Shown here: positions 45,321 to 63,812 of the stretch, piece after piece
Layout: each line of letters begins with the position of its first letter
Numbering within the stretch: position 1 is the stretch's first letter
DNA from: an uncultured delta proteobacterium
Lineage (GTDB): Bacteria > Desulfobacterota > Binatia > UBA9968
Length of the DNA stretch: 64,000 nt
Direction of reading: 5' to 3'
NCBI GenBank assembly: GCA_963816145.1
Contig: CAWFJP010000031.1
Coordinates: 512,001-576,000, forward strand
Notes under the pieces: generated by a model
The model's input: the letters and a program-made list of their open reading frames with translations, nothing else
Told to the model about the DNA's origin: nothing
Databases searched by the model: none
Made by a program: the position numbers and the translations under genes

Positions 45321-46223
45321 CTATGAGATGGGTGTGACGGTAACTTTAACTTCGAGTTTTTGTTCGCCGCCGCCGTTGATGACGCCGCGCAGCGGCGTCA
45401 CATCGGAGAAATCGCGGCCCCACCCGACGGTGATATGCTCCAATGAAGGCATGACGTTGTTGGTCGGGTCGAAGTCGATCCAGCCATGGTCGGGAACGAA
45501 CAACGAGACCCAAGCGTGGGATGCATCGGCGCCGACGCGGCGAGATTTGCCGGGAGCCGGACGGGTCAGCAGATAACCGCTGACATAGCGCGCCGCCAGT
45601 CCGGTGGAGCGCAAGCAGGAGATCATCAAGTGGGTGAAATCCTGGCAAACGCCGTGCCTGTGGGTGAAAAAAGTCATCACGGGGGTCGTCACCGTGGTTG
45701 CTTTGGCATCAAACTTAAACTCTGCGTGAATCTTCGCCATCAGCGCCATGGCCGCTTCGAGAATTGGCCGTCCAGCGGTAAAACAATCGCTTGCATAGGC
45801 GCGCAGGCTGCGTTTGACCCGGATGTGCGGCGATTCGAAGAGAAACTGGGTCGCTTCCAATATGGCGGGCTGAGGATGCCTCGCGGCTTGGTAGGCGAGC
45901 ACGTCGCGAACGCTCTCCCAAGCCGAGGAACCGTCAAGTTCGCTCTGCGCCGCCGCCAACTTTACCGTCGTATAGGCAATAATATTCAAAGCTGTGTGCC
46001 CCGACTCAATCGCAACCTCGGTCACCGGGTTGCCGAATGCGTCGATGAATTCACGCCGCAGGGTTGGCGTGGGGGTGATCGCGACGGCATGTTTGATGAC
46101 CTGTTGATGCTCCAAAGGTCGCGGCGTCAGATGCAATTGCTGATGGGACAGCATCACCGGCTCCGAGTAGTGATAAGCGGTGAAGTGTTCGATCTGATAG
46201 AGTTGCTCGCTGTTTGGCGTCAT
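45321..46223 (-). CDS. Transglutaminase family protein
   Basis: GVCQDF, ASHAW and DFDPTN triad; GRDFSDVTP. Confidence 0.92.
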   Translation of the reverse strand: MTPNSEQLYQIEHFTAYHYSEPVMLSHQQLHLTPRPLEHQQVIKHAVAITPTPTLRREFIDAFGNPVTEVAIESGHTALNIIAYTTVKLAAAQSELDGSSAWESVRDVLAYQAARHPQPAILEATQFLFESPHIRVKRSLRAYASDCFTAGRPILEAAMALMAKIHAEFKFDAKATTVTTPVMTFFTHRHGVCQDFTHLMISCLRSTGLAARYVSGYLLTRPAPGKSRRVGADASHAWVSLFVPDHGWIDFDPTNNVMPSLEHITVGWGRDFSDVTPLRGVINGGGEQKLEVKVTVTPIS

Positions 46224-48739
46224 GCGGCAACGCTCGTTTGCGGCCGCTCGCCGGCGTGGACAAAAAACCGCTGCGTGAACTCATCGGACAATCCCTGGGC
46301 AAAGCGTTCGCAAGCGGCCAGCAACGGCATCAGCGGTTCGCCATGGGACGGCAGGATCTCCGACAGATACGCGAGATCGAGGCCGCGCAGCGCTTGGAGC
46401 ATGGAATGAGGATGGTTGTACGGCTTGAAGTCGAGATGTTCCTGGAGCCGCTGCAAGCGCGCGCCCAGGGTGGCGAGCTGATAACACACCGAGTGCGGAT
46501 TCGATTCGTCGAGCAGGATCAGATCGAGGGCGGGCAACAGTTCGGCTTGGCGCTGGTAGCGCGCCCGGTAGGTGATGCTGACGTTGCCGATTTCGAGCAT
46601 GGCATCGAGCACGGCCTCGCACTCGTCGGCCGGCAAGGCCAGAACCTGCGTGACGGTCGAGCAGAGAAACACCAGACGCTCGATCTCGCGGCCGATGACG
46701 AGAAATTGCCAGGCGTCATCCCGGGTCATATCATCAAAGGCGAAGCCGGCCAGGGCGGTGCAAGCCGGCAGCACGGCATCGAGGACGGTTAGCGCGGCGT
46801 CGAAGCTTTGCGGCGCCGGCTCATGGGCGTGCGCCAGGCGCTGCACCGTGCGCCAATGATCGATGGACATGCGCTCGCGCAATTGCGCGGCGCAGTAAAG
46901 CAACCGGCCGGTGTTGGCAGGCACGCCGTTGACAATCTTGGGATCGCCGACTGCCGCCAATAGCCAGTCGGCGCTTAAATGCGATGGGGAGATTTTTTTC
47001 GTTGCTAGAGTTTGTACGGTTTGACCGATCATTGTCTGTAGCCCAGCGCGTTCCGATAGGCTGGTCAGCACTTTGACGGCGGCGAGACGCGACGGATCGC
47101 TCTCGCTCAAGCGCTGGGCGACGCAGCGCAGCAAGCGACCGGCGTTGTCGACGCGCTCGACGTAGCGCCCCATCCAAAACAAATTTTCCACGGTGCGGGA
47201 GGGCGAGTAGAAACCGCCCCGGACGATGTCGCGGGCGCCCAAGCGGGGCAAGAGCAGCGAGTTCCACGGCGTCGCGCCATCGCCCAATACCCAGACGTCT
47301 TTGCTCGAACCACCGCGCTGCATGGTAATCACTTCGGCCGCCGATTCGGGAGCGACGCGAGCCAGGCCGCCGGGCATCACATCATAACCATTGCCATTTG
47401 CCGTTGCGTAAAGCCGCAAACCAACAACGCGCGGCTCGAATTGCTGCTTTTCCGTCGACCAGGTCGGCGCCTGGGACAGCCGCACCCGTTCCTGCGCGAC
47501 AAAGGCGTGGGGGGTTGCTCTCAAGCGATCGATCATGGCGTCGCGTGCGGCACCGTCCAGGGTATGGCCAAAGGTCGGCTCGAGCTTCATCGAGGGAAAC
47601 GCCGGCTTGATGACCAACTCGGGCAGATGTTTGATGACATATTCGAGTGCCGGCGCTTCGCCGCACCACCAGGTGGCCACCGACGGCAAAGCCAGTGATT
47701 CACCGAGCAGAGTCTGGCACACGGCCGGCAGAAACCCAGCCAAGGCGGGCGATTCGAGCACGCCGCAGCCGAGCGCGTTGGCGATCACGACATTGCCCGC
47801 GCGCGCCGCCGAGATCAGGCCGGCGACGCCGAGTGTCGAGTCGGTGCGCAGCGCAGCCGGATCGCAATATTCGTCGTCCAGACGGCGCAACAACACGTGG
47901 ACGCGTTTCAGCCCTTGCAAGGTCTTCAGATAAACGCGATTTTCGCGCACCGTGAGATCCGAGCCCTCGACCAGGGGAAAGCCGAGATAGCGCGCCAGAA
48001 AGATATGCTCGAAATAGGTTTCGTTGTATGGACCGGGGGTTAACAGAGCGACTAGCGGCGCTTCGCCGGCGGTCGGCGCGAGGGCCGCCAGTTGTTGCTG
48101 CAGCGTGCGAAAAAAGCTCGCCAATCGCTGCACACCGAGGGCGCGAAAGATGTTTTCATACTGCGGCGTGACGATCAGACGATTTTGCAATGCATAGCCT
48201 GCCCCGGACGGGCCTTGGGTGCGATCGCCGATGACCCACCAGCGGCCATCGGGCGAGCGGGCTAGGTCGCAGGCGTATAAATGAAGGAAGATCCCCCCCG
48301 GCGGCTCGATGCCGCGGCAGGGCCAAAGATAGTTGTGATGACCGTGAATGAGCGCTGGCGGGATCAATCCCTCGGCGAGCAATCGGCCGGCGCCGTACAA
48401 GTCGGTGAGCATGCGGTTCAATAAGTGGGCGCGCTGGGCAACCGCGCCGGTGAGATAGTGCCATTCCTCTTTGCCGATGACGAACGGCAGCACATCGACT
48501 TCCCACGGGCGATCGGTTCCTTTGGGATCGCCGTAAATGTTATAGGTTACGCCATGCTGTTCGACGGCGCGGCGAATGGTGCTGGCGCGCCGGGCCAGGG
48601 CGGCACGGCTCGACCGGCGCGCCGCTTGAGCTAGGCGCCCCCAGTGATGTCGCGGACGTCCTTGCAGGTCAAAAACTTCGTCGTAGCGTCCGGGCTCAGG
48701 TACGTAATTCATAAAGATTTGAGATCGGGCCATGAACAA
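46220..48739 (-). CDS. Circularly permuted type 2 ATP-grasp protein fused to an alpha-E domain
   Basis: DRTQGPSGAGYALQNR, RRLDD..CDP, MPGGLAR and GGSSKDVW; alpha-E motifs LFWMGRYVER and GREIER. Confidence 0.9.
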   Translation of the reverse strand: MFMARSQIFMNYVPEPGRYDEVFDLQGRPRHHWGRLAQAARRSSRAALARRASTIRRAVEQHGVTYNIYGDPKGTDRPWEVDVLPFVIGKEEWHYLTGAVAQRAHLLNRMLTDLYGAGRLLAEGLIPPALIHGHHNYLWPCRGIEPPGGIFLHLYACDLARSPDGRWWVIGDRTQGPSGAGYALQNRLIVTPQYENIFRALGVQRLASFFRTLQQQLAALAPTAGEAPLVALLTPGPYNETYFEHIFLARYLGFPLVEGSDLTVRENRVYLKTLQGLKRVHVLLRRLDDEYCDPAALRTDSTLGVAGLISAARAGNVVIANALGCGVLESPALAGFLPAVCQTLLGESLALPSVATWWCGEAPALEYVIKHLPELVIKPAFPSMKLEPTFGHTLDGAARDAMIDRLRATPHAFVAQERVRLSQAPTWSTEKQQFEPRVVGLRLYATANGNGYDVMPGGLARVAPESAAEVITMQRGGSSKDVWVLGDGATPWNSLLLPRLGARDIVRGGFYSPSRTVENLFWMGRYVERVDNAGRLLRCVAQRLSESDPSRLAAVKVLTSLSERAGLQTMIGQTVQTLATKKISPSHLSADWLLAAVGDPKIVNGVPANTGRLLYCAAQLRERMSIDHWRTVQRLAHAHEPAPQSFDAALTVLDAVLPACTALAGFAFDDMTRDDAWQFLVIGREIERLVFLCSTVTQVLALPADECEAVLDAMLEIGNVSITYRARYQRQAELLPALDLILLDESNPHSVCYQLATLGARLQRLQEHLDFKPYNHPHSMLQALRGLDLAYLSEILPSHGEPLMPLLAACERFAQGLSDEFTQRFFVHAGERPQTSVAA

Positions 48740-51700
48740 TCAAATTTTACGCAAATCGAGGGTGAAGGGAAACTCCGGGTCGATGCGCGGCTCGCTAATT
48801 TCGATGATCCCCGGCGTGTGGCCGATGCGGAAGAAGCGCTCGAGACGGCGGCTCTCGGCTTCGAAAGCGTTGACGGGAAAGACCTCATAGCTGCGGCCGC
48901 CGGGATGCATGACATGGTATTGACAGCCACCGAGGCTCCGTTTCATCCAGCGGTCGACGATATCAAAGGTGAGCGGTGTGTGGACTGCGATGGTGGGGTG
49001 CAAGGCCGAGGGCGGCTGCCAGGCGCGATAGCGCACGCCGACCACGAATTCACCGACGGTGCCGGTGGATTGCAGCGGCAGCGGCACTCTATTGCAGGTG
49101 ATCGCATAGCGATCGGGCGGCAGTCCGGTGACTTTGACCTGCACTCTTTCCAGCGACGAGTCGACGTAGCGCGCGGTGCCGCCGGGGGCGCCCTCCTCGC
49201 CCAGCACATGCCAAGGCTCCAAGGCGGCGCGCAGCTCGAGCTCGATGCCACGGGTCGCGAAATCGCCGTACTTGGGAAAGCGAAATTCAAAGTGCGGCGC
49301 GAACCAGCCGGCATCGAAGCCATAGCCGGCTTGATTCAGCTCTGTGATCACGTCTTGAAAGTCGAGCCAGACGAAGTGCGGCAGCATAAAACGGTCATGC
49401 AGTTCGGTGCCCCAGCGCACCAGTCGCGGCGGCGCGTAGGGGGTTTTCCAGAAGCGCGCGATCAGCGCGCGGATCAACAACTGTTGGGTCAGACTCATGC
49501 GCCCGTGCGGCGGCATCTCGAAGGCGCGCATCTCAAGCAAACCCAGGCGCCCGGTGGCGCTGTCCGGCGAATACAGTTTGTCGATGCAGAACTCGGCGCG
49601 ATGGGTGTTGCCGGTGACGTCGATGAGCAGATTGCGCAGCAGCCGGTCAAGCAGCCAGGGCGGGCAATCTTGTTTCGCCATGCGCCGCTCCAACTCGCGA
49701 AACGCCACTTCGATTTCGCGCAGCGAGTCGTTGCGTGCCTCGTCGATGCGCGGCGCCTGCGAGGTCGGGCCGATGAAAAGGCCGCTAAAAAGAAAAGACA
49801 GCGACGGGTGATTGAGCCAATAGCTTAAAAAACTGCGCAAGAGATCCGGGCGCCGCAGCCACGGCGAATCCGCCGGCGTGGCGCCGCCGAGGGCGAAATG
49901 ATTGCCGCCGCCGGTGCCGGTGTGGCGTCCGTCGATCATGAATTTCTCCGTCGAAAGACGCGACTCGCGCGCCGTCTCGTAGAGAAACGCCGTCTGTTCG
50001 CTTGATTCGTCCCAGCTCGACGAAGGTTGAATATTGACCTCGATCACACCCGGGTCGGGGGTGATGCGAAAGTGCGGCAGGCGCGGATCGCGCGGCGGCT
50101 CGTAGCCTTCAAACAGAACCGGCTGATTCAGCGCTTCCGCTGTCGCTTCCACGGCGGCAACCAGTTCGAGATAATCTTCTAGGGCGGCGCTCGGCGGCAT
50201 AAAGATGTAAAGCACGCCGTTTCTCGCCTCGGCGCAAATCGCGGTGCGCGAGATCCACGGCGCGCTCTCATGCATGGTTGGCACGCGCTCGCTTGCACCG
50301 CCATTCTCCGTACCACCAGTACGCCGTACTGCTTCGTTGTCCGCGGATTTTGCCGCGCTAACTTGAAAACGAATTTGCCCGTGAGTCGCAAGCGGTGGCA
50401 GCGGCTGGGTGGGATCCGGTGGAAAAATATAGGGGTAATCTGTGGCGCTGGTCCACGGCAGCGAGTCTAACGGCAGCCGATAGCCCATGGCCGAGTCACC
50501 GGGAACGAGGTAGCAGCGCTCGCCGCGCAAAAACCACTGTCCGCTGCGCCAACGTTCGGTCGCGGGGTCGCGCGCCACCGGCAGGGCATAACCGACGACA
50601 TAATTTAATCCTTGGTCGAACACGCGCATGAGACGCGCGCGTTCGAGCGGATCTTCGAGCCGCGAATCGAAGGGATCGACGTTGGCGGGCAAGCGCCGCT
50701 CGCGCCACATGTAGTAATACAAATCTTCGTAGGCAGGAAAAATATCGCGCGGGTTCAAACCAAGCCGTTGAGCCACGCCGCGGAGAAATTCGCCCGCAGT
50801 AACGTCGGTCGCTGTGTCGGCTTGGGTCTCGTCGGCGATCAAAGAGTCATCGCGCCAGATGGGCTCGCCGTCGGCGCGCCAGAAGCAATTGAGCGACCAG
50901 CGCGGCAGTTGTTCGCCGGGATACCATTTCCCCTGGCCGAAATGGACCAGGCTATGAGCGCCGTAGCGTGTGCGCAGGCGATGATAAACCTCGGTCGCGA
51001 GCCGGCGCTTGTTCGGTCCGAGCGCCGCCGTATTCCACTCCTCGCCCTCCGGATCGTCCATCGAGACAAAAGTCGGTTCGCCGCCCATGGTGAGTCTGAC
51101 GTCGCTATCTTTCAGGTCGATATCGACAGCATGACCGAGTCGGTCGATCGCCTGCCATTGCTCCTCGGTGTAGGGTTTAGTGACGCGCGGCGCTTCCCAG
51201 ATTCTTGTGACCGACATTTCATGGGCAAATTCTACTTTGCATTCATCGATCGCGCCGGTCACGGGAGATGCCGATCCGGGTTCGGGCGTGCAGGCGAGCG
51301 GCAAATGGCCTTCGCCGGCGAACAAGCCCGAGGTCGCATCGAGACCGATCCAGCCGGCGCCGGGCAGGTACACCTCGGCCCAGGCGTGCAGATCGGTGAA
51401 ATCTTTTTCCGGTCCGGACGGGCCGTCGAGAGATTTCACATCGGCGGTGAGTTGAATCAGATAACCCGACACAAAGCGTGCGGCCAAGCCTAAATGGCGT
51501 AGCAACTGGACCAGCAGCCAAGCGGAGTCGCGGCAGGAGCCCGAACCTTTGGCGAGCGTTTCTTCCGGTGTTTGGACACCCGGTTCCAGGCGGATCAGAT
51601 ATTTAACATCGCGCGCCAATTGCGCATTCAAGGCGACGAGAAAATCCACGCTGCGCCGCGGCTCGCGCGGGATCGCGCCGAGATAACGTTTAAACAGCGG

Positions 51701-52072
51701 CGTGAGCGGCTCGCGCTTGACGTAGGGCGCAAGCTCATTTTGTTGCCAAGACTCGTATTCGAAGGGGAATTGCTCGGCATAAGGCTCAAGAAAAAAGTCG
51801 AAGGGATTGATCACCGCCATCTCGGCGACCAAATCGACCTCGATGCGAAACTCGTCGGTGGTCTCGGGGAAAACCAGGCGGGCCAAATAGTTTGCCTGGG
51901 GGTCCTGCTGCCAATTAATAAAGTGCTTTTGCGGCGCGATCCTGAGCGAATAACTCAAGACGCGGGTGCGGCAGTGCGGCGCCGGGCGCAAGCGCAGGAC
52001 CTGCGGGCCGAGATTAATCCGCCGGTCATAGCGATAGTGAGTAACATGATGCAGCGCAACGTGGATGGACAT
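48740..52072 (-). CDS. Transglutaminase + DUF2126 (putative amidoligase) fusion protein
   Basis: GSCRDSAW and DLHAWAEVY; LTMGGEPTFVS, TPDPGVIEVN and GTGGGNH; start at MSIHVAL. Confidence 0.9.
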   Translation of the reverse strand: MSIHVALHHVTHYRYDRRINLGPQVLRLRPAPHCRTRVLSYSLRIAPQKHFINWQQDPQANYLARLVFPETTDEFRIEVDLVAEMAVINPFDFFLEPYAEQFPFEYESWQQNELAPYVKREPLTPLFKRYLGAIPREPRRSVDFLVALNAQLARDVKYLIRLEPGVQTPEETLAKGSGSCRDSAWLLVQLLRHLGLAARFVSGYLIQLTADVKSLDGPSGPEKDFTDLHAWAEVYLPGAGWIGLDATSGLFAGEGHLPLACTPEPGSASPVTGAIDECKVEFAHEMSVTRIWEAPRVTKPYTEEQWQAIDRLGHAVDIDLKDSDVRLTMGGEPTFVSMDDPEGEEWNTAALGPNKRRLATEVYHRLRTRYGAHSLVHFGQGKWYPGEQLPRWSLNCFWRADGEPIWRDDSLIADETQADTATDVTAGEFLRGVAQRLGLNPRDIFPAYEDLYYYMWRERRLPANVDPFDSRLEDPLERARLMRVFDQGLNYVVGYALPVARDPATERWRSGQWFLRGERCYLVPGDSAMGYRLPLDSLPWTSATDYPYIFPPDPTQPLPPLATHGQIRFQVSAAKSADNEAVRRTGGTENGGASERVPTMHESAPWISRTAICAEARNGVLYIFMPPSAALEDYLELVAAVEATAEALNQPVLFEGYEPPRDPRLPHFRITPDPGVIEVNIQPSSSWDESSEQTAFLYETARESRLSTEKFMIDGRHTGTGGGNHFALGGATPADSPWLRRPDLLRSFLSYWLNHPSLSFLFSGLFIGPTSQAPRIDEARNDSLREIEVAFRELERRMAKQDCPPWLLDRLLRNLLIDVTGNTHRAEFCIDKLYSPDSATGRLGLLEMRAFEMPPHGRMSLTQQLLIRALIARFWKTPYAPPRLVRWGTELHDRFMLPHFVWLDFQDVITELNQAGYGFDAGWFAPHFEFRFPKYGDFATRGIELELRAALEPWHVLGEEGAPGGTARYVDSSLERVQVKVTGLPPDRYAITCNRVPLPLQSTGTVGEFVVGVRYRAWQPPSALHPTIAVHTPLTFDIVDRWMKRSLGGCQYHVMHPGGRSYEVFPVNAFEAESRRLERFFRIGHTPGIIEISEPRIDPEFPFTLDLRKI

Positions 52073-52469
52073 GGTTTGAATTTTGTCGATCGATGGAGAC
52101 TCAATGTAGAAGAAGGGCGGACCGGGTTCAAGCGGTGTCGTTCGAGCCGGCAGGCATCCGACAAAGTGCTGGTTGTAAGTTTTCTGTCCCAGCCGAGTTG
52201 CCGCGCAGGATAAGTTTAACGAAGGGATCGTCAAAAGCTCCACGTCGGCAAATTAAAACTTTAGGGAATCTTAAAAGCAAATTTTGTTCCTCGGCGAAAT
52301 CGGATTTTCATACCGATTGATCGTAGTACTGTTAGGCCAAGTTTTACCGATGCCAATTAATCAATCAGTGGATGCATGGTTTTGCAGCAGACCAAAGAAT
52401 CGCGGCTCCGGGGACGCAAAGTAAAAGAACGATTTTACCGTGCTAGCGGCGATTCACGCGCTCCGAGCC

Positions 52470-52571: not shown

Positions 52572-53894
52572 ATGGCCATCGAATCAGGTTCAAATCACCT
52601 AACACACGTTGGCATTGTCGTCGGCGGTGGTCCGGCGCCGGGAATTAACGGCACGATCGGCGCCGTAACGCTCGAGGCCGGCAATCGGGGCCGCGAAGTC
52701 GTTGGCATCTACGATGGGTTTTCCCATTTGATGACCGGCTGCACCGAGCGCGTCAAAAAACTGCAGCATGACGATGTTTCACGGATCCATTTCGAAGGCG
52801 GATCGATTCTCGCAACCTCGCGCGCCAACCCGACCAAGAATGGCGCCGATTTAGCGTGTGTCGTCGCTTCGCTAAAAACGCTCGGCATCGGCTACCTTGT
52901 CACCATCGGCGGCGACGACACCATGTACGCGGCGAGTCAGTTAGCGCAAGCCTCGGCGGGGCAAATCCGGGTGTGCCATGTGCCGAAGACCATCGACAAC
53001 GATCTGCCGTTGCCTAGCGAAACGCCGACGTTTGGTTTTGAAACGGCTCGTCAATACGGTTTTGAAATCGTCCATAACTTAATGGAAGACTCACGCACCA
53101 CCGGCCGTTGGTACTTCGTCGTCATCATGGGCCGGACCGCGGGCCATTTGACGCTGGGGGTCGGCAAGGCAGCGGGCGCGACGCTGGCCGTGATACCTGA
53201 GGAATTTCCCGGTCCCATCCACCTTGAAATGATCGGCGATATCTTGGAAGGGGCGATTCTCAAGCGCCAGGCGCTTTGGGGACGCAATGACGGTGTCGCG
53301 GTGATCGCGGAAGGATTGCTTGAACGGATGCCGGAACAAGAGTTGACGGCGATCGAGGGCGTGCAGATCCAGCGCGACAGCTACGGCCATCTGCGCCTGG
53401 CGGAACTCGATCTCGCCTATATTTTAAAGACCTTGGTGGAACGGCGCTTCGCGGCGCGCGGCCAGGGTCTGACAGTGGTGCATAAAACGGTGGGTTATGA
53501 ACTGCGCTGCGCGCCGCCGGTTGCCTTCGATTGTGATTATGTCAAAACCCTGGGCTACGGCGCGGTCGAGTTTCTCCTCAACCCCGATCCGCTGACTGCA
53601 ACCTTCGATGGCGCGCTGGTTTGTCTCATTGACGGCGAATTGCAATATCTCAAATTTGACGACCTGCTCGACGCCAAGACGAAAAAGACCACGGTGCGCA
53701 CCGTCGACATCTCGAAGCCTTCATATAAAGTCGCGCGCGAATATATGATTCGCTTGGAGCGGGAAGATTTTGCAGATCCGCAAAAGCTGGAAAAATTGAC
53801 GCGCGCCGCTTCGAGCAAAGACTTGCAGCTATCGTCGGAAGCCTTCAAACAGCGGTTCGAACCCGTCGTAAGCCAGCTTCTTGGAGGTTTTTAA
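52572..53894 (+). CDS. pfp: Pyrophosphate-dependent phosphofructokinase
   Basis: GGGPAPG, GGDDT and PKTIDND (PPi signature), MGR, GYELR. Confidence 0.88.
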   Translation: MAIESGSNHLTHVGIVVGGGPAPGINGTIGAVTLEAGNRGREVVGIYDGFSHLMTGCTERVKKLQHDDVSRIHFEGGSILATSRANPTKNGADLACVVASLKTLGIGYLVTIGGDDTMYAASQLAQASAGQIRVCHVPKTIDNDLPLPSETPTFGFETARQYGFEIVHNLMEDSRTTGRWYFVVIMGRTAGHLTLGVGKAAGATLAVIPEEFPGPIHLEMIGDILEGAILKRQALWGRNDGVAVIAEGLLERMPEQELTAIEGVQIQRDSYGHLRLAELDLAYILKTLVERRFAARGQGLTVVHKTVGYELRCAPPVAFDCDYVKTLGYGAVEFLLNPDPLTATFDGALVCLIDGELQYLKFDDLLDAKTKKTTVRTVDISKPSYKVAREYMIRLEREDFADPQKLEKLTRAASSKDLQLSSEAFKQRFEPVVSQLLGGF

Positions 53895-53925
53895 AGCGTG
53901 GCCGAACCCTTGTCGCTGCGGGCCG

Positions 53926-54138
53926 TCAAAGCTCTCTTTTTGTCGCGACGTTTTTACTTGGCTTTCTTGCCTTGGATGGGATGGCCCGGCGTTTTTTTGG
54001 CGCATGGGTTTCCAGCCAAATTTCTTGGGCTTTCAGCCAATGCTGAACGTCGGCTCCGTCTGGGCACCCCGACTCCTGCCAAATTTTATATGCAAGTTGC
54101 CGGATCTCTTCGTTGCGATCGATCTGCGTCGCTTGCAT
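53926..54138 (-). CDS. DUF2934 domain small protein
   Basis: IRQLAYKIWQESGCPDG....HWLKAQ; AAGGAG RBS. Confidence 0.85.
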   Translation of the reverse strand: MQATQIDRNEEIRQLAYKIWQESGCPDGADVQHWLKAQEIWLETHAPKKRRAIPSKARKPSKNVATKREL

Positions 54139-54267
54139 GACTCATGCTCCTTTCTCTTGGCTACAGGACAAATTCAAATCGGTGTTTCTTCTGTGAACAA
54201 CTGTCTGGAGGCGCAGCGGCGCTCTTGATTCAGCTGTCGGCTCCGGTGCGCCTATGAGCTTGACGGA

Positions 54268-55269
54268 TCATTGCCATCCGGCCATCAAGCCGAGCAAATC
54301 GCAGACGCGGTTAGAGTAACCCCATTCGTTGTCGTACCAACTGAGACACTTGAGATACTTGCCGCCGGTGACCGTGGTAAATCCGGCGTCGAAAATTGAT
54401 GAATGGGCGTTTCCTATAATATCCGAGGACACCACCGGGACTTCCACGAACTGCAGAATACCTTTCATGCGCTTGGATTCGGCGGCCGCGCGGATCTCAG
54501 CATGGACATCGTCAGCGCTCACGCTTTTCTCAAGTTCGACGAACAGGTCGACAACCGAACCGTCGGGCACCGGCACGCGCGCGGCGATGCCGTCGAGCCG
54601 GCCTTTCAATTGCGGCAACACCATGCCGACTGCTTTGGCGGCGCCGGTCGAGGTCGGGATGATGTTTTCCGCCGCGGCGCGGCTGCGCCGCCAGTCCGAG
54701 TGCGGCACGTCGGCGAGCCGCTGGTCGTTGGTATAGGCGTGCACCGTGTTGATGACCCCCTCGACGATGCCGAAAGAGTCCTGCAATACCTTCGCCAATG
54801 GCGCTAGACAATTGGTGGTGCAACTCGCGTTGGAAATAATCCGGTATTCCGGCTTAAGTCCGTCATCGTTGACGCCGAGGACGACCGTGTAGTCGATCGC
54901 ATCCTTCGCGGGCACCGTGAGCACAACCCGCTTCGCGCCAGCGCGCAGGTGCTGGGTCAGCTGTTCCTTGGCGGTGAAGATGCCGGTGGACTCTATGACC
55001 GCATCGATGCCGAGATCGTTCCAGGGCAATTTTAGTGGGTCCCGTTCACACAGCATCCGGGTACGGCCATGGGAAGTAACCAAATCATCGCCTTCGAGCC
55101 GCAGGGTGCCGTCGAACGGACCCATGACCGTATCGTAATGGAGCAGGTAGCGCAGCGCTTCATTGTCAAAGAGGTCGTTAATCGCGACTACGTCAACGTC
55201 TCCACGCTTGTCGAGAATCCGGAATACCGTGCGGCCGATGCGGCCAAATCCGTTGATTGCGACTCTCAT
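54268..55269 (-). CDS. gap: Type I glyceraldehyde-3-phosphate dehydrogenase
   Basis: GFGRIGR, SNASCTTNCLAP, HAYT, ARVP and WYDNEWGY all intact. Confidence 0.97.
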   Translation of the reverse strand: MRVAINGFGRIGRTVFRILDKRGDVDVVAINDLFDNEALRYLLHYDTVMGPFDGTLRLEGDDLVTSHGRTRMLCERDPLKLPWNDLGIDAVIESTGIFTAKEQLTQHLRAGAKRVVLTVPAKDAIDYTVVLGVNDDGLKPEYRIISNASCTTNCLAPLAKVLQDSFGIVEGVINTVHAYTNDQRLADVPHSDWRRSRAAAENIIPTSTGAAKAVGMVLPQLKGRLDGIAARVPVPDGSVVDLFVELEKSVSADDVHAEIRAAAESKRMKGILQFVEVPVVSSDIIGNAHSSIFDAGFTTVTGGKYLKCLSWYDNEWGYSNRVCDLLGLMAGWQ

Positions 55270-56285
55270 TGCACACCTCCGACGCTATCGAGCTTGCCAT
55301 AGTGCCGCACCACGTCGAGCACGCGGCAGGCATGACCCAAACTCTCGTACCAGGCCAGGACTTTGACGATGTTTTTCCCGGCTTTGAGGGTTGCTTGCGC
55401 ATCAAACAGTAAGGATTGCCGGGAGCCAATGACATCGGAAGAAACGATCGGATCATCGGTAATGCCGATCAGCAGCGGATGACCGTTAGCGGCGGCCCGC
55501 ATGGCCTCGTTTACTTGCGCCTTGGTCACGTCGCTGTCGTGCATCACGCAGTTCAGATCCAGCAACGAGCCCTGTTGCACCGGCACGTTGAGGGCATAGC
55601 CGCTTAGCTTTCCAGCGAATTTCGGCAAGATCAGCTCTACCCAATGCGCCGACTCATTGCTGTTGGGGATAATGTTCTGGGCAGCGGAGCGACTGCGGCG
55701 AAAATCCTCGTGGGCATAATCCTGCAAAGATTGATCGCTGCTGTAAGCATGAACCGTGGTCATCGAAGCGTAGTCGACTCCCAGCGCGGCGTCGAGAAAA
55801 TATAAAAGCAGCGCAAGCGCGTTGGTGGTTGCCGAACCAGCCGAGATCAGTCTGTCGCCACTGACCGCGCTCGCCTCATTGATGCCGGGAACCAGCACGC
55901 GGTCAATAGATTCCGCCGGCAGCGATGCGAGAATCACCCGGCCCGCCCCCGCTTGTAGGTGGGTTTCCAGATATTCACGGCGTCGATAACGGCCTGTGGC
56001 GTCGATAACGCAATCGACCCCGAAAACGTCCCATGGAACGTCCCCAGGTTTGGCAATCTGTAGCATCCTGGTGCGAAACTTATTGTTGACCAGATAATTG
56101 TCGTAGAGTTCGCACGGTGGTGCGTCGGCAGTGTCGCTCTTGAGGAGATAGTGGAGAATTTCTGGCTTGCCGATATCCGCCACCGCGACGATCTCAAGAT
56201 CGTCGCTTTCCGCCGCAAGGTGATAGAGGTGTCGACCGATTTGCCCTAAACCCATAAGTCCGACTCGGATCTTCCTGTTCAGCAT
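55266..56285 (-). CDS. GAPDH-like protein lacking the catalytic Cys (probable pseudo-enzyme)
   Basis: Full-length GAPDH fold, but SAGSATTNALA replaces SNASCTTNCLA; LNVP replaces ARVP; WYESLGH replaces WYDNEWGY. Confidence 0.85.
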   Translation of the reverse strand: MLNRKIRVGLMGLGQIGRHLYHLAAESDDLEIVAVADIGKPEILHYLLKSDTADAPPCELYDNYLVNNKFRTRMLQIAKPGDVPWDVFGVDCVIDATGRYRRREYLETHLQAGAGRVILASLPAESIDRVLVPGINEASAVSGDRLISAGSATTNALALLLYFLDAALGVDYASMTTVHAYSSDQSLQDYAHEDFRRSRSAAQNIIPNSNESAHWVELILPKFAGKLSGYALNVPVQQGSLLDLNCVMHDSDVTKAQVNEAMRAAANGHPLLIGITDDPIVSSDVIGSRQSLLFDAQATLKAGKNIVKVLAWYESLGHACRVLDVVRHYGKLDSVGGVQ

Positions 56286-56852
56286 AGATTTTTCACCTGA
56301 GTTTCATCTACTTGCGGCCAAACATTTACCAGCGCTGGAACGCATTTACCCTCAGTTACGCCGCGAAAGTCGAAAACGCAGTCAAAAATGAAAAATTTGC
56401 AGTTTTCGAATTGCACCAGTCTATATGCGTTGCCATTGATAGTACTCGAAAGCAGGGAGAGTATCCAAGCGTTAGATTGAATCGTAAATGCAAAGACCAC
56501 GCCGTGGCAAAGGGCCTAAAGCTGACTCGATACGGTGGCGTTCCGCCGCTGTAGGCAACTCAAGATGCCCTAATACTGATCGCGGACTGCACAGCAGTTA
56601 GGCAGTGCGCGTGAAAATCGAGGGTCACATAGTGCTGGGTTCGGATTTTCCGAACCCCAGCACCATGTAGCCATTGGCGGAAGAGATTCTCGACAGGGAA
56701 TCGGTGCACCCTAACCCGCTTCGAAGCAGTAGATAACGACGATTGTCGTGGCAGCCGTTCAAGTTAGCTGAAGAACCTCCATGCGGCAGTGAGCTTCGCG
56801 GTGAACTCTAGCGCGTTCTTTGACGCCGTAAAGGTCCGGTAGCCATGCGCGC

Positions 56853-58724
56853 TCATTCAGCCAGTGTGCGGATCTCAGCGTCGGCGCGGCGCAATTTTGC
56901 CGAGAGTTCGCGGGCAATATTGAGAATCAGTTTGTACTTGATCTGCGGGTGATCGAGCGCAAGGGCATTGAGCCTCTCGGTGGACAGGATATAGCAGACC
57001 ACCGGCATATCAGCGACGACATCCGCAGATCGACGCCGGCCGTCGAGCAGCGAGAGTTCGCCAAAAGCCAATCCGGCGCTCAGTGAACTCAGCCGCTTGC
57101 CCCGGCTACCATTCGGCAAATTCAGATAGACGCTGACCGATCCGGCGGCAAGCAGAAAGAGCGAATCGGCCGAGTCACCCTCGTGAATAATCTTGTCTCT
57201 GGCACTGTAGTGCCGTTTTATCAACACCGATTCGAGCAAGGCGATCTCGGCGGCGTCCAGGCCGGCGACGATATCAATCGCCGCAATCGGCACTGGGGCG
57301 TTGGTGCAGCTCAGGGCTGGACCCTCCTCGGCTATCAGCTGGCTTTCGCACCACTCCAGAGCCGCATCGATATCGGCAAAGATGCTATCCGTTCCCCAGG
57401 GAGGGGTGGTGCGGTGTTGTAAATAAGCCGAATCGGCTTGCGGCAGATGCGCCAGGATTAGTTTTTTATCATCTGCCGTGAGGGTGCCCCGCAATTGGAC
57501 CAAAAGAGTCAGGGCGCAGTCGTCGATTTCCGGGACGCGCTTAAAATCGAGAATCAAATACGCTGCTGAATCAATATCGTTCGTCATCTGGCGCAAGAGC
57601 CGCTCCATGGTCGCGAAAAACAGATTGCCCTGAAGTTCGTAAACGCAGATTGCCCGGCCTTTGCGGTTCAGGATGGCTTGTTCGGCGTTGCTGCGCTGAA
57701 GTTTCGAACGAATCCTGTCGCCCCGGTAGGTCCTGCGCACGGCCACCGCGGTGGACGCGCGGGTGCCAAACATATGCAATTTGAAACGCTCGGAAATCGC
57801 TTGGCAAACTTGAATGCCCCGGCAACTATTACCCTGGGCATCGAGCAGCGGCGAATAGGTGCCGATGCCCAACTGGCCAGGTAACGCCGCGATGATGCCG
57901 CCGCTGACGCCGCTTTTGGCCGGTAGGCCGATGCGATAGCACCATTCGCCAGAGTAGTCGTACATGCCGCAGCTCTGCATCACGGCGAGGACGTTTTTGA
58001 CGTAACGCGCCTCGATGGCGCGTACACCGGTCAACGGATTGATGCCATTGTTGGCGACCGTGGCGGCGATCATGGCCAAGTCACGGGGACTCACCAGTAT
58101 CGAACATTGCTTAAAATAGAGATCGAGATGTTCGTCCACCGGCTCGGCGATCATGCCGGCGTTGAGCTCGAGATAGCCGATGGCGCGGTTACGATGGCCG
58201 GTGCTGTGCTCCGAAGCGTAGACCGCGCGATCGATCTGCACCGGGCGACCGCAAAGATCGGAAAACTTGCCGAGTAGTCGCTCCAAACGCTCTGCATGAT
58301 TGGCGCCGTTGATCAACGCGGTGGTGGCGATGGCGCCGGCATTGACCATTGGATTAAAAGGCCGGTTGCTGCGTTCGTCGAAAACAATCGAGTTAAACGC
58401 TTCGCCGCTGGGCTCGACGCCGACTTTTTCCAAAATCCGTTCGATGCCATTGTCTTCCAGGGCAAGCGCGTAAACGAACGGCTTGGAGATTGATTGAATG
58501 GTAAATAACTGTCTAGAATCGCCGACCTCGTAAATTTCACCGTCGGCGGTGGCCAGCGCGATGCCGAACTGCGCGGGATCCGCCTTGGCAAGTTCGGGAA
58601 TATAGGTGGCGATTTGCCCGGAGAAATTTTCCCGGTACTCGCGGTAAATTTCAAAGAGCGTGGTAAGAATCGGCGAAAATGTAGTCTCGTCGGAGTCCAA
58701 GTTTTGGGCCAGTCTAGAGCGCAT
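56853..58724 (-). CDS. glsA: Glutaminase A with C-terminal STAS and cNMP-binding domains
   Basis: QSISKPF, NPMVNAGA, GMYDYSG and PAKSGVSGG; LQGNLFFA/ILDFKRV (STAS); FGELSLLDGRRRSA (cNMP). Confidence 0.92.
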   Translation of the reverse strand: MRSRLAQNLDSDETTFSPILTTLFEIYREYRENFSGQIATYIPELAKADPAQFGIALATADGEIYEVGDSRQLFTIQSISKPFVYALALEDNGIERILEKVGVEPSGEAFNSIVFDERSNRPFNPMVNAGAIATTALINGANHAERLERLLGKFSDLCGRPVQIDRAVYASEHSTGHRNRAIGYLELNAGMIAEPVDEHLDLYFKQCSILVSPRDLAMIAATVANNGINPLTGVRAIEARYVKNVLAVMQSCGMYDYSGEWCYRIGLPAKSGVSGGIIAALPGQLGIGTYSPLLDAQGNSCRGIQVCQAISERFKLHMFGTRASTAVAVRRTYRGDRIRSKLQRSNAEQAILNRKGRAICVYELQGNLFFATMERLLRQMTNDIDSAAYLILDFKRVPEIDDCALTLLVQLRGTLTADDKKLILAHLPQADSAYLQHRTTPPWGTDSIFADIDAALEWCESQLIAEEGPALSCTNAPVPIAAIDIVAGLDAAEIALLESVLIKRHYSARDKIIHEGDSADSLFLLAAGSVSVYLNLPNGSRGKRLSSLSAGLAFGELSLLDGRRRSADVVADMPVVCYILSTERLNALALDHPQIKYKLILNIARELSAKLRRADAEIRTLAE

Positions 58725-60980: not shown

Positions 60981-61046
60981 CTGAAAGCCGCATAGGACAA
61001 ATCTTGCGCGCCAACGATGCGGCCGCGCGGATGCGCGCTGGAAACA

Positions 61047-63812
61047 ATGGATCCCATTGACGACGCTGAGTTGGGTCTCGATAAAGATCAGCCCCTGCGG
61101 GAAGACGTTCGTCTACTTGGCCGTCTGCTCGGGGATACGCTGCGCGAGCGACAGGGTCACGCGGCCTTCACTCTGGTCGAAGCCATTCGACAAACGGCCG
61201 TGCGTTTCCGCCGCAACGGCCAGCCCGACGCCCGCACGCAACTGCAGCTAACTCTCAGTGGTTTGAGCGACGACGCCACCGTCGCGGTTGCCCGCGCTTT
61301 CAGTTATTTCTCACAGATGAGCAACATCGCCGAGGATTTGCACCGTAACCGGCGCCACCGGGCGCATCAATTCGCCGCCTCCGCGGCACTGCCGGGGAGT
61401 CTGGCGCACGCCATCCGGCGCGCCAAGGTCAAGGGAATTACCGCCTCGGAAATTCAAAAATTTTTCAACGGCGCGCTGGTCATGCCGGTGCTCACAGCCC
61501 ACCCAACTGAAGTGCAGCGCAAGAGTATTCTCGACGGCCTGCGAGATATCGCAGTGTTGCTCCATGAGCGCGACCGGGTCCAGCTCACGCCGAGCGAACG
61601 GGCGCACAATGAAGACGGGCTACGACGGGCGATTCTGACACTCTGGCAGACCCGCGTGTTGCGCGAATTGACGCTTTCGGTCCGGGATGAAATCGACAAT
61701 GGTCTATCTTATTTCGACACGACGTTTCTCGAACAGCTGCCTCGGCTTTACGGTGAAATCGAGGATTCGCTCAATAGCCATTGGCCGGGCGGTTTTTCTC
61801 TCCCGGCTTTTATGAAAGTAGGCACTTGGATCGGCGGCGACCGGGACGGTAATCCTCAGGTCAACGCGGCGGTTTTGCACTATGCTCTCGAGCGCCAGTC
61901 TGCCGTCGCGATCGACTATTATTTGGCCGAAGTCCGTCAACTTCGTCGGGAGCTTTCCCAGTCGCAGCGCTTGGTGCGGGTGACGCCTGCCGTCGAGCAG
62001 CTCGCCGGGCGCTCCGTCGATCAATCAGCGCATCGGCGCGACGAACCTTACCGCCTGGCTTTGAGTCATATGCATGAGCGGCTTTTGGCAACAGCTGCGG
62101 CTTTGAACCGTGGTGCGCCGGCTGCGCCGAGCGAAAAATGCGCGGCTCCTTTCGCCGTATCCGGCGAATTAGCCGGCGATCTCCAACTCATCACAGATTC
62201 TCTTGAGCAGCATGGTTCGGCGCGGGTTGCCCGGGGACGTCTGCGCAGCCTGCAACGCGCCGTCTCCATATTCGGCTTTCATCTGGCGCCGGTGGATTTG
62301 CGGCAACATAGCGAGGTATATGGACGGGTGGTCGCCGAGCTGTTCCAGGCCGGCGTGCGCCGCGCCGGTTATGATCAGTTGGCCGAAGCCGAGCGTCAAC
62401 GCTGGCTGATCGAAGAGCTCACGCTGCCTCGTCTGCTGCGCTCACCGCACGAGACTTACAACGGTGAGACCGAATCGGAGCTCAAGATCTTCGATATGGC
62501 GGCGCTGCTGCAACGCCGATACGGCGTGGAGGCTCTCCCGACCACGATCGTCTCGATGGCGACAGCGGTGAGCGACCTGCTGGAAGCGGCATTGCTCCTT
62601 AAAGAAGCAGGTTTATTGCTGGCGCCGCCGCAGGCGCGGCTGGCGATGAATATCGTGCCTTTGTTTGAAACCATCGCGAGTCTGCGCGATGCCGGCCGAA
62701 TTATCGACCAGCTGTTAAGTTTACCATTATACCGCCAATTGCTAGCCAGCCGCGGCGATGTGCAGGAGGTCATGCTGGGCTATTCCGACAGTAATAAGGA
62801 TGGCGGCTACCTGACCTCGAACTGGGAACTCTATAAGGCGGAGATCGATCTCATTGAAGTCTGCCGGCGGCAAAGCATAAAGCTTCGGCTTTTCCATGGC
62901 CGGGGCGGCACCGTGGGCCGCGGCGGTGGTCCCAGCTATCAAGCGATCCTGGCGCAGCCGGCGGGCAGTGTCTCGGGACAGATTCGCATCACCGAGCAGG
63001 GCGAGGTGATCGCCAGCAAATATGCCGATCCTGAAATCGGCCGGCGCAACTTGGAGACGTTGGTGGCGGCGACCATGGAAGCGACGATTTTTTACACCGA
63101 TGGCGGATCGAATGACAGCTTTCACGGGACCATGGAGGAGCTTTCTGAAGCGGCCTTGCGAGCCTACCGATCCCTCGTCTACGAGACCCCGGGTTTTCTC
63201 GATTTCTTTCGCAGTGCGACTCCGATTGAAGAAATTGCCGGCATGCACGTTGGCAGCCGACCGGCGGCGCGCAACGCGTCGCGGCGAATCGAAGACTTGC
63301 GAGCGATTCCCTGGGTATTTAGCTGGTCGCTGGCGCGCATCATGCTGCCAGGATGGTTTGGCTTCGGGACGGCGGTCGATGTTTTCGTTGCGCGTCAAGG
63401 CGAAGCTGGGATTGAATTGTTACGCGAAATGTATGATCGCTGGCCATTCTTTAACACGCTGCTGTCGAATATGGACATGGTTTTGGCCAAAAGCGATATC
63501 CACATCGCGTCGCGCTATGCTGAGTTGGTGGGCGACATGACGCTGCGGGAATCCATCTTCAAGCGCATTCAACATGAGTATCAGCGCACGGTCGCACGCT
63601 TACTGAAGATCACGCGACAGTCGGAATTGCTCGCCGGCAATCCCTTGTTGGCGCGCAGCCTGCGCAATCGCGTGCCTTACATTGACCCGCTCAATCATAT
63701 CCAAGTCGAAGCTCTCAAGCGTTATCGTTGTGGCCAAACCGATGAGCGGGTGAAGCGCACTATATTGCTCACGGTCAATGGCATCGCCGCCGGCCTGCGC
63801 AACAGCGGCTAG
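61047..63812 (+). CDS. ppc: Phosphoenolpyruvate carboxylase
   Basis: VLTAHPTE, WIGGDRDGNP, MLGYSDSNKDGG, FHGRGGTVGRGG and LRNSG C-terminus. Confidence 0.97.
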   Translation: MDPIDDAELGLDKDQPLREDVRLLGRLLGDTLRERQGHAAFTLVEAIRQTAVRFRRNGQPDARTQLQLTLSGLSDDATVAVARAFSYFSQMSNIAEDLHRNRRHRAHQFAASAALPGSLAHAIRRAKVKGITASEIQKFFNGALVMPVLTAHPTEVQRKSILDGLRDIAVLLHERDRVQLTPSERAHNEDGLRRAILTLWQTRVLRELTLSVRDEIDNGLSYFDTTFLEQLPRLYGEIEDSLNSHWPGGFSLPAFMKVGTWIGGDRDGNPQVNAAVLHYALERQSAVAIDYYLAEVRQLRRELSQSQRLVRVTPAVEQLAGRSVDQSAHRRDEPYRLALSHMHERLLATAAALNRGAPAAPSEKCAAPFAVSGELAGDLQLITDSLEQHGSARVARGRLRSLQRAVSIFGFHLAPVDLRQHSEVYGRVVAELFQAGVRRAGYDQLAEAERQRWLIEELTLPRLLRSPHETYNGETESELKIFDMAALLQRRYGVEALPTTIVSMATAVSDLLEAALLLKEAGLLLAPPQARLAMNIVPLFETIASLRDAGRIIDQLLSLPLYRQLLASRGDVQEVMLGYSDSNKDGGYLTSNWELYKAEIDLIEVCRRQSIKLRLFHGRGGTVGRGGGPSYQAILAQPAGSVSGQIRITEQGEVIASKYADPEIGRRNLETLVAATMEATIFYTDGGSNDSFHGTMEELSEAALRAYRSLVYETPGFLDFFRSATPIEEIAGMHVGSRPAARNASRRIEDLRAIPWVFSWSLARIMLPGWFGFGTAVDVFVARQGEAGIELLREMYDRWPFFNTLLSNMDMVLAKSDIHIASRYAELVGDMTLRESIFKRIQHEYQRTVARLLKITRQSELLAGNPLLARSLRNRVPYIDPLNHIQVEALKRYRCGQTDERVKRTILLTVNGIAAGLRNSG

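Follow-up and report, generated by a model that had tools for sequence, protein, structure and literature searches.

A Cys-less GAPDH homolog overlaps a canonical gap gene

Why would a bacterium keep a glyceraldehyde-3-phosphate dehydrogenase (GAPDH) homolog that lacks the catalytic cysteine, and encode it immediately next to an intact GAPDH? The question is raised by a locus in a 64,000-nucleotide stretch of DNA, here called the window (positions 512,001 to 576,000 of contig CAWFJP010000031.1, assembly GCA_963816145.1, from an uncultured delta proteobacterium), in which two GAPDH-type genes overlap on the reverse strand. An earlier note, made from the sequence alone, read the upstream gene as a maintained pseudo-enzyme made in step with the canonical Gap encoded downstream. 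We use PsiGap as a working name for this upstream, Cys-less homolog. It proves to be a maintained gene that travels with its neighbor as one unit, and we favor, with modest confidence, the view that PsiGap is a non-catalytic subunit made roughly 1:1 with a dedicated Gap, with which it would form a mixed tetramer, its retained NAD/anion pocket possibly serving as a sensor. The elements at the center of the locus are:

55266..56285, reverse strand: PsiGap, a GAPDH-fold paralog of 339 amino acids; uninterrupted full-length open reading frame, assigned from Pfam, NCBIfam and comparison with Gap
54268..55269, reverse strand: Gap, a canonical type I GAPDH of 333 amino acids with SNASCTTNCLA, VHAYT, ARVPV and WYDNEWGYS; 420.9 bits against TIGR01534
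55266..55269, reverse strand: ATGA stop/start overlap, in which the PsiGap TGA (55268-55266) overlaps the Gap ATG (55269-55267)
55276..55280, reverse strand: GGAGG, a Shine-Dalgarno-like motif for gap within the last PsiGap codons, 6 nucleotides before the ATG; putative ribosome-binding site

PsiGap and Gap are 39% identical (128 of 327 positions, E 1e-73), and in both proteins the two GAPDH domains are full length (in PsiGap, Pfam PF00044 positions 1-99 of 101 and PF02800 positions 1-158 of 158). The region around the cysteine motif reads ISAGSATTNALA in PsiGap and ISNASCTTNCLA in Gap. Its PsiGap version, SAGSATTNALA, has Ala at both Cys positions of SxxSCTTNC: Ala152, equivalent to residue 149 (codon GCA, 55832-55830), and Ala156, equivalent to residue 153 (codon GCG, 55820-55818). 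Both phosphate sites are altered, with ALNVPV in place of ARVPV, where Asn233 (codon 55589-55587) replaces Arg231, and IIPNSNESAHW in place of IIPTSTGAAKA, where Thr208/Gly209 have become Asn/Glu. The WYDNEWGYS of Gap corresponds to WYES-LGHA, WYESLG standing in place of WYDNEWG (in general form, WYE(S/N)-LG). Retained are GLGQIGR, VAVAD, VHAY (His codon 55751-55749) and DFRRSRSAAQNIIP, and with them the residues GxGxxGR, Asp37 (= Asp32), Ser151, Thr153/154, His179 (= His176) and Arg196/197/199. Everything the earlier note had claimed of this sequence holds: a full-length GAPDH homolog in which both Cys are Ala, the Arg of RVP is Asn, the Asn of WYDNE is lost and the other motifs are kept.

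GAPDH catalysis proceeds, by an established mechanism, through a thioacyl intermediate on Cys149, which PsiGap, lacking this residue, is unable to form, and Arg231 belongs to the site that binds the substrate phosphate (Ps). The roles of these and the other residues discussed here (Cys149, His176, Arg195, Arg231, Thr208/Gly209, Asn313 and the S-loop) we take to be those of textbook GAPDH. Judged from its sequence, PsiGap cannot carry out GAPDH chemistry, because it has neither the thiol nucleophile nor Arg231. Family models also set it apart: PsiGap scores 262.5 bits against the type I GAPDH equivalog TIGR01534, below the cut-off of 367.2, and 188.6 against the Epd model TIGR01532, whose cut-off is 530.55, and it passes no NCBIfam model. 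In their source records, PsiGap-type proteins are named 'type I glyceraldehyde-3-phosphate dehydrogenase' or 'NAD-binding domain-containing protein'. A sequence search of the PDB found no close solved relative; the top 60 matches are all named GAPDH, at about E-63 or weaker, and identity to solved GAPDHs is about 40%. A search of the ESM Atlas with PsiGap returned generic GAPDH clusters only.

PsiGap is maintained by purifying selection

Of the 8000 candidates scored in a word-indexed homolog search with PsiGap, 4192 proteins reached E<=1e-10. Cys is missing from the motif position in every one of the 120 best homologs, which are 76-95% identical to PsiGap; their motifs are SAGSATTNAF (60), SAGSATTNAL (58), STGSATTNAF (1) and SAGSPTTNAF (1). 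The substitutions are therefore not due to chance, nor to read errors, which the earlier note had already considered unlikely. In a set of 62 complete PsiGap/Gap gene pairs, comprising the window and 61 further loci, position 149 of PsiGap is Ala in 57, Pro in four and Ser in one, and Arg10 is replaced by Gln in 57; Asn231, His176, Arg195, Ser148 and Asp32 are each present in all 62. Among close relatives in a marine sister clade, 70 of 80 loci have Ser at position 149 and the other 10 have Ala, so that no nucleophile is conserved there.

Across 66 PsiGap and sister-clade sequences, the invariant positions, in PsiGap numbering, include GxGxxGR, Thr97-Gly98, Ser151, His179, Asp184-Gln185, Arg196/197/199, Asn204-x-Ile-Pro-Asn208, Asn233-Val-Pro and DPxVSxD, while Asp37 and Thr153/154 are nearly invariant (at least 90%). 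Asn at the position of Arg231 is found in 66 of 66, the marine clade included. Because GxGxxGR and the Ser/Thr/His/Arg/Asn set are invariant or nearly so, the sequences argue that the nucleotide pocket and part of the anion pocket are kept in PsiGap.

Rates of change were estimated by the Nei-Gojobori method (NG86) on the 551 of 1891 sequence pairs with 0.05<dS<1.5. The median dN/dS is 0.114 for PsiGap (interquartile range 0.097-0.133) and 0.068 for Gap; PsiGap changes its amino acids about 1.65 times faster than Gap, and the 62-sequence sets contain 129 and 196 columns, respectively, that are at least 95% identical. Relaxed selection, which the earlier note had named as a ground for refutation, is not seen, and PsiGap is a maintained gene under strong purifying selection.

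PsiGap and Gap travel as one unit

A genome scan, with one genome per species, gave 78 related loci. For metagenomes, a 17-sequence alignment of diverse members (A1) was too divergent, and a three-sequence alignment (A2) was used instead in a scan with the sister clade, which gave 80 marine loci. Adjacency was then counted uniformly by tblastn over the 78 genome and 80 metagenome loci. A canonical gap directly follows PsiGap at 73 of 78 genome loci and 78 of 80 metagenome loci, that is, at 151 of 151 loci with downstream sequence (158 fetched), all of them from Cys-less subclades. The seven exceptions are six contigs that end inside or right after PsiGap (four genome, two metagenome) and one locus, L081, that has neither gene intact. 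Consistent adjacency of Cys-less homologs to gap, a check proposed in the earlier note, is thus borne out.

The L081 locus, from a metagenome-assembled genome (MAG) of an uncultured Halioglobus sp., differs from L055:4138-5980 by a deletion of 1842 nucleotides that runs from about codon 46 of PsiGap through nearly all of Gap; its flanks are 93-95% identical to L055, and it reflects either joint loss of both genes or an assembly artefact.

The overlap at 55266-55269 is present as the earlier note had described, and it recurs across phyla. Among 64 complete pairs, the junction is ATGA (-4) in 40 and TAATG/TGATG (-1) in 20, making 60 overlapping pairs, with four others frameshifted or slightly shifted; in 65 complete marine pairs, the distance between the genes ranges from -4 to +10 nucleotides. 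The junction strings of related loci end in GGTG...ATGA (Binatia-type) or start with GAGGC (Halieaceae). Together with the adjacency and the dN/dS, these junctions uphold the idea of a maintained pseudo-enzyme made in step with Gap, and the ATGA overlap suggests that the two are translationally coupled.

The partner Gaps form a clade of their own, whose branching (Pseudohongiella, L045, Halieaceae, Binatia-type) mirrors that of PsiGap, with the housekeeping Gap of the same genome placed elsewhere in the tree. Pairwise dN values of PsiGap and Gap are correlated (r=0.96). Because the clades mirror each other, their dN values are correlated and the surrounding genes differ between lineages, the pair is shown to be co-inherited as one unit. 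Further cassettes of PsiGap plus gap occur in sampled genomes from the window's genus (G162), from one family of its phylum (G067, G999, G1028, G1057) and from Gammaproteobacteria (G303, G515). Among new genomes, a PsiGap-like gene lies upstream of six of six Gaps that are at least 62% identical to the partner type, versus none of three that are 53-54% identical.

Several arrangements resemble variants of the pair. At L028:3986-6004, a single frame of 673 amino acids (P0271) joins PsiGap and Gap, the shift falling within the last six or so PsiGap codons; the record looks like a long-read MAG, and an indel error is as likely as a real fusion. This frame and P0272 (677 amino acids) resemble frameshift read-throughs, and one of the two comes from a nanopore-type MAG; we did not count them as Rosetta-stone evidence for a natural PsiGap-Gap fusion. 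In two genomes, canonical gaps stand in tandem 57 nucleotides apart, both with Cys149 and Arg231 (L163, G033:C187:271-2345; L164, G072:C34); we rejected these as PsiGap cassettes, since they are an ordinary tandem duplication in a different arrangement.

PsiGap belongs to an old paralog family

A FastTree phylogeny was built from 150 sequences (representatives at 50% identity from an exhaustive search, together with sampled pairs). The 33 proteins in it without Arg231 all fall into a single clade (support 0.99) that is distinct from the canonical Gaps. We define these proteins as the GapX-like family: Arg231 replaced by Asn, Glu314 lost or replaced by Gly, His176 kept, and a position in the tree outside the canonical Gaps. 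Neither Pfam nor NCBIfam has a name for this family. A further 119 proteins were gathered by a profile search based on 17 diverse members; 118 of them have Asn231, 118 have Gly314 and all 119 have His176. PsiGap is a member of this old family and not a recent duplicate of the neighboring Gap, a point on which the earlier view needs correcting.

In a tree of 158 leaves, the family falls into two subclades. None of the 42 leaves in one of them (support 0.93), to which the window protein and the marine Ser/Ala type belong, has the Cys; the other, of 103 leaves, is mostly Cys-keeping with several separate losses. Fitch parsimony requires eight changes between Cys and non-Cys on this tree, and Cys149 has been lost several times independently within the family. 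Some close relatives differ only in Cys versus Asn (P0276 versus P0281 and P0322), others only in Ser versus Ala. Because of these repeated losses and of close relatives that differ only there, the sequences indicate that the selected function of the family is independent of residue 149.

Two further sets of sequences turned up in the searches. Four GAPDH homologs without Cys149 that keep Arg231 (P0253, P0235, P0215, P0196) lie among canonical Gaps and are sporadic losses outside the GapX-like family. P0123 (2089 amino acids) has four GAPDH domain pairs plus a PGK domain, with alternating SNASCTTNCA and SAASCTTNA[YF] motifs, and is possibly a eukaryotic fusion or a mis-called gene.

A mixed GAPDH-type tetramer is predicted

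We modeled a complex of Gap and PsiGap with ESMFold2, supplying our own alignments, and the calibration counts are therefore only rough. The score was 0.71 (runs 0.68-0.72), versus 0.00 for the best of three controls; GAPDH homo-oligomers have been solved, and the score may thus reflect memory of that interface. The score mark is reached by 58 of 80 solved complexes and two of 110 mismatched pairs. Three runs agree in at least 98% of contacts, with 132 contacts and a partner pLDDT (predicted local distance difference test) of at least 90. The predicted interface is symmetric: each chain contributes residues of about 170-309, among them the S-loop's RRxR/NIIP end and the xVPV strand.

The interface is preferentially conserved: the 43 predicted interface positions of PsiGap have a mean column identity of 0.76, versus 0.63 for the rest of the catalytic domain (Mann-Whitney p=0.002), and PsiGap matches Gap at 24 of the 43, versus 38% identity elsewhere. 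Comparison of 66 partner Gaps with 79 stand-alone canonical representatives, in which the sequences are related and p-values overstate their independence, gave 16 partner-specific Gap residues. The predicted interface accounts for five of these (Fisher p=0.04), and the S-loop (positions 179-205) for six (A186, V188, S191, W193, S196 and E201; p=0.0007). Co-assembly of PsiGap with Gap is only indirectly supported by the complex model (which may be memory), by interface conservation and by these S-loop residues.

A mixed tetramer fits the complex model, the preserved interface and the partner-specific S-loop residues, and could work as follows. PsiGap and its dedicated Gap would be transcribed together and translated together through the stop/start overlap and the internal Shine-Dalgarno motif, giving a ratio of about 1:1. 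The two would then assemble through ordinary GAPDH subunit interfaces. Only the Gap subunits would turn over substrate, and PsiGap would provide structural contacts, as the S-loop lines the NAD pocket of the neighboring subunit in GAPDH tetramers. The intact NAD(H)/anion-binding pocket of PsiGap might act as an allosteric sensor. On this reading, PsiGap would bind Gap in this stoichiometry, might bind a ligand of its own and might affect the kinetics or regulation of Gap. Such effects may extend to flux direction, cofactor use or redox sensitivity, as the earlier note had suggested.

Several points weigh against this proposal. The complex model, from which physical binding of PsiGap to Gap is predicted, cannot separate a hetero-oligomer from two homo-oligomers, and interface conservation would fit a PsiGap homotetramer equally well. 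The pocket residues are invariant (Ser148, Thr150/151, His176, Arg194/195/197, Asn231, GxGxxGR and Asp32), which could equally reflect an independent ligand-binding or catalytic role. A search for longer or fused forms gave no clean fusion, only P0272 and the unrelated multidomain protein P0273. RNA evidence is thin: contigs from RNA libraries on this region are short (a 196-nucleotide piece within PsiGap, 55538-55733, with three differences, and pieces of 261-278 nucleotides in Gap), none of these short metatranscriptome contigs bridges the PsiGap/Gap junction, and DNA carry-over is possible.

The wider family also bears on the proposal. Cys149 is kept in 75 of the 119 profile matches (motif SN[GA]SCTAHC; several labelled Acidobacteriota or Thermoanaerobaculia), the others having Asn (14), Ala (12), Ser (11), Thr (5), Val (1) or Ile (1). 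Because most of these matches keep Cys149, the ancestral function of the family may have been catalytic. The earlier note had held that its reading would fall if relatives retained the Cys: close homologs do not (0/120), and only remote ones, at about 40-45% identity, do. The genomic context of a Cys-keeping member was seen once, in P0272, where an upstream paralog with SNASCTAHC and NVPV is read through into a canonical Gap. With P0276 as query, 401 genomes of Pseudomonadota and 301 of the phylum to which the window belongs yielded partner-type or ordinary Gaps only, and no Cys-keeping members; phyla labelled Acidobacteriota, where such members are seemingly common, lay outside that search.

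Distribution and genomic surroundings

The carriers fall into two main groups. About 44 of the 78 genome loci, at 74-93% identity, come from records labelled Candidatus Binatia, 'delta proteobacterium', Deltaproteobacteria, Syntrophobacter or Syntrophobacteraceae, with single records of Verrucomicrobia and Chloroflexota. About 33, at 50-61% identity, are gammaproteobacterial, mostly Halieaceae plus one Pseudohongiella, and include the cultured species Seongchinamella unica, S. sediminis, Pseudohalioglobus lutimaris, P. sediminis and Halioglobus japonicus. PsiGap is patchy: among 121 sampled genomes of the window's class, only that of the window and a single congener carry it, and this query found none in another congener that is 98% complete; a sample of 151 genomes of the phylum gave one distant cassette only. 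A search of plasmids found no GapX-like match, all 241 records being below 60% identity and those listed annotated as gap. Labels given by NCBI to close relatives are mutually inconsistent, and the window's assembly is 7.8 Mb, versus 3.9-5.0 Mb for congeners, with 6.7% contamination; for these reasons we place no reliance on its taxonomic position.

A third gap, of the ordinary kind, lies on another contig of the window's genome, between a second phosphofructokinase (PFK) gene and a CBS-domain gene, and the Halieaceae and Pseudohongiella genomes checked have four to five GAPDH-family genes each. Because its carriers hold further GAPDH-family genes, the cassette is an accessory module and not the sole GAPDH. 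The third gap lies at L001 (G000:C29:107325-110795), where the PFK paralog, the ordinary Gap (337 amino acids) and the CBS-domain protein are on one strand; the genome thus has two PFK-Gap neighborhoods, and PsiGap is in one only.

Neighbors of the pair change between lineages, and no second neighbor is conserved. In Halieaceae, the usual order is TauE, 2-keto-3-deoxy-6-phosphogluconate (KDPG) aldolase, PsiGap, Gap, phosphoenolpyruvate (PEP) carboxylase; among gammaproteobacterial loci, PEP carboxylase is downstream of Gap in 21 and KDPG aldolase upstream in 13. The marine set has acyl-CoA synthetase, HAD hydrolase, an AsnC regulator, glutamine synthetase and a protein with a type IX secretion sorting domain. 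In the window, the neighbors are a convergent PFK gene, a glutaminase-STAS-cyclic nucleotide (cNMP) protein, a glucan phosphorylase and, 4.7 kb away, PEP carboxylase. Further features close to the pair are:

56293..56298, reverse strand: AGGTGA, a putative Shine-Dalgarno-like motif 7 nucleotides before the PsiGap ATG (56285)
56481..56510, reverse strand: sigma-70-like promoter match TTGCCA-18-TACGAT, about 195 nucleotides upstream of PsiGap; a consensus match only
53926..54138, reverse strand: DUF2934 small protein of 70 amino acids (PF11154, E 1.8e-12), 129 nucleotides downstream of gap

Four sigma-70-like consensus sites were found, versus 1.4 expected in shuffles. An Rfam scan of 53700-57000 gave only a chance microRNA match (E 0.61). 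The DUF2934 protein does follow gap, as the earlier note said; as a third component of a conserved unit we rejected it, since it lies downstream in only six of the 78 related loci (L006-L010, L029).

Other features of the region are recorded here for completeness. The PEP carboxylase gene lies at 61017-63812 on the forward strand, and cassette and ppc are linked in more than one phylum. Directly upstream of the cassette's 567-nucleotide intergenic region, at 56853-58724 on the reverse strand, is a 623-amino-acid glutaminase fused to STAS and cyclic-nucleotide-binding domains, and a similar protein is encoded upstream in L006 and L010. On the reverse strand at 48740-52243, a protein of 1167 amino acids combines a transglutaminase N-terminal region, a transglutaminase core and DUF2126 (a putative amidoligase); it is abutted by an 839-amino-acid reading frame at 46220-48739.

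Alternative explanations

PsiGap might instead be independent of Gap, probably as a homotetramer, with a Cys-independent activity (hydride transfer with His176 as base, for example) or ligand binding, its adjacency to gap reflecting a shared pathway. We consider this unlikely, though it is the most serious of the alternatives. The Rossmann fingerprint, Asp32, His176, Ser148, Thr150/151 and Arg195 are (nearly) invariant over the 66 sequences, as they would be in a working pocket, and Asp128-Arg129 and Asn208 are new invariant residues. Cys149 in most members of the wider family hints at an enzymatic ancestry, and other enzymes with a GAPDH-like fold work without Cys. Reductase domains of the superfamily that lack the active-site Cys are described in part of a review of aldehyde dehydrogenase superfamilies (PMC12041015). 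However, position 149 varies in otherwise conserved relatives (Ala, Pro, Ser, Gly, Thr, Asn, Val) and both phosphate sites have changed. Between genes that merely share a pathway, a stop/start overlap with one particular paralog is seldom maintained as it is here, at 151 of 151 loci amid otherwise changing neighbors. The partner Gap also has an S-loop and interface signature of its own.

A second alternative, which we regard as improbable, is that PsiGap senses metabolites or NAD(H), or moonlights, on targets other than Gap (an enzyme, RNA or transcription), co-translation tying its level to glycolytic capacity. The retained nucleotide-binding motif and the central-carbon surroundings (PFK, PEP carboxylase, phosphorylase, KDPG aldolase) would suit such a role, as would a marine Ser-type subgroup with an extra 84-amino-acid N-terminal extension that has no Pfam match (P0127 residues 1-84; L082-L085). 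Pfam domain scans detected no DNA- or RNA-binding domain, however, and no second conserved neighbor presents itself as a target. Preservation of the GAPDH dimer interface, together with the Gap residues specific to partners, suggests that the target is Gap itself. Finally, that PsiGap is a decaying pseudogene, or a mis-assembled or duplicated gap copy without function, can be dismissed: its catalytic residues are lost and its NCBIfam score is below the cut-off, but the full-length, uninterrupted frame, hundreds of conserved orthologs in several phyla, 129 nearly invariant columns and a dN/dS of 0.114 rule out decay.

Implications and comparison with known systems

The non-catalytic subunit reading would matter beyond this locus. 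Few enzymes have been studied as much as GAPDH, which in bacteria is regarded as a homotetramer; a conserved, co-translated, disabled paralog would add a layer of regulation or assembly where carbon flux meets the NAD(H) pool. It would also account for the type I GAPDH label that databases give to many genes that cannot be such, a label that skews the metabolic reconstruction of soil and marine bacteria. That one family has lost Cys149 repeatedly and independently provides a natural series for studying the path from enzyme to pseudoenzyme, and because the pair is present in cultured and harmless marine Halieaceae (Seongchinamella, Pseudohalioglobus, Halioglobus), the proposal is directly testable. 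A broader version, which we put forward only tentatively, is that GapX-like proteins are old and widespread GAPDH-derived subunits that form obligate mixed tetramers with a dedicated Gap and exert allosteric control over the central oxidative step of glycolysis, the former active site sensing NAD(H) or triose phosphate. If this is true, then bacteria would possess a 'prozyme' system for GAPDH, its carriers being records labelled Binatia/Desulfobacterota, cultured Halieaceae and abundant marine lineages, and catalysis by the second subunit would have become dispensable repeatedly.

We found no description of a natural Cys-less GAPDH paralog partnered with gap in the open-access and bioRxiv full-text literature, supplements aside. 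In the pertinent part of the review cited above (PMC12041015), the term 'pseudoenzyme' is applied to ALDH16 only. This suggests that a pseudoenzyme partner paralog within the GAPDH family is previously undescribed.

How does PsiGap compare with GAPDH relatives that are known? With canonical type I GAPDH (GapA; TIGR01534, PF00044 plus PF02800), it shares both domains, the Rossmann motif, Asp32, Ser148, Thr150/151, His176, the S-loop RRxR and DPxVSSD, whereas the absence of Cys149 and Cys153, the changes at Arg231 and Thr208/Gly209 and the TIGR01534 score set it apart. Erythrose-4-phosphate dehydrogenase (Epd) is likewise a GAPDH paralog of diverged function; it keeps the catalytic Cys, unlike PsiGap. 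The PDB matches of PsiGap include entries 1npt, 1nq5, 1nqa and 1nqo, which we take to be engineered C149A/C149S active-site mutants of Bacillus stearothermophilus GAPDH. These Cys-less mutants fold and bind NAD and substrate. Made in the laboratory as point mutants, they retain Arg231 and an intact Pi site, whereas PsiGap is a natural lineage in which both phosphate sites have been remodeled.

The chloroplast A2B2 GAPDH (GapA/GapB) is alike in having two GAPDH paralogs in one tetramer, one of them regulatory, as hetero-assembly would provide for PsiGap. In the chloroplast enzyme, however, each of the two subunits is catalytic, and a C-terminal extension of GapB that contains Cys confers the regulation; PsiGap lacks the catalytic Cys, and its short tail, KLDSVGGVQ, has no Cys pair and no Cys at all. 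Also comparable are catalytically deficient paralogs that are kept under selection as subunits: the trypanosomatid prozymes of S-adenosylmethionine decarboxylase and deoxyhypusine synthase, the alpha and beta subunits of plant pyrophosphate-dependent phosphofructokinase, and Idh1/Idh2 of yeast NAD-dependent isocitrate dehydrogenase. GMPPA/GMPPB is a further case (PMC11228364). None of these is a GAPDH, and translational coupling in a bacterial operon is absent from those eukaryotic cases. Such subunits work through a complex with the active paralog, the old active site often becoming an effector site, and PsiGap may well act on Gap in the same manner.

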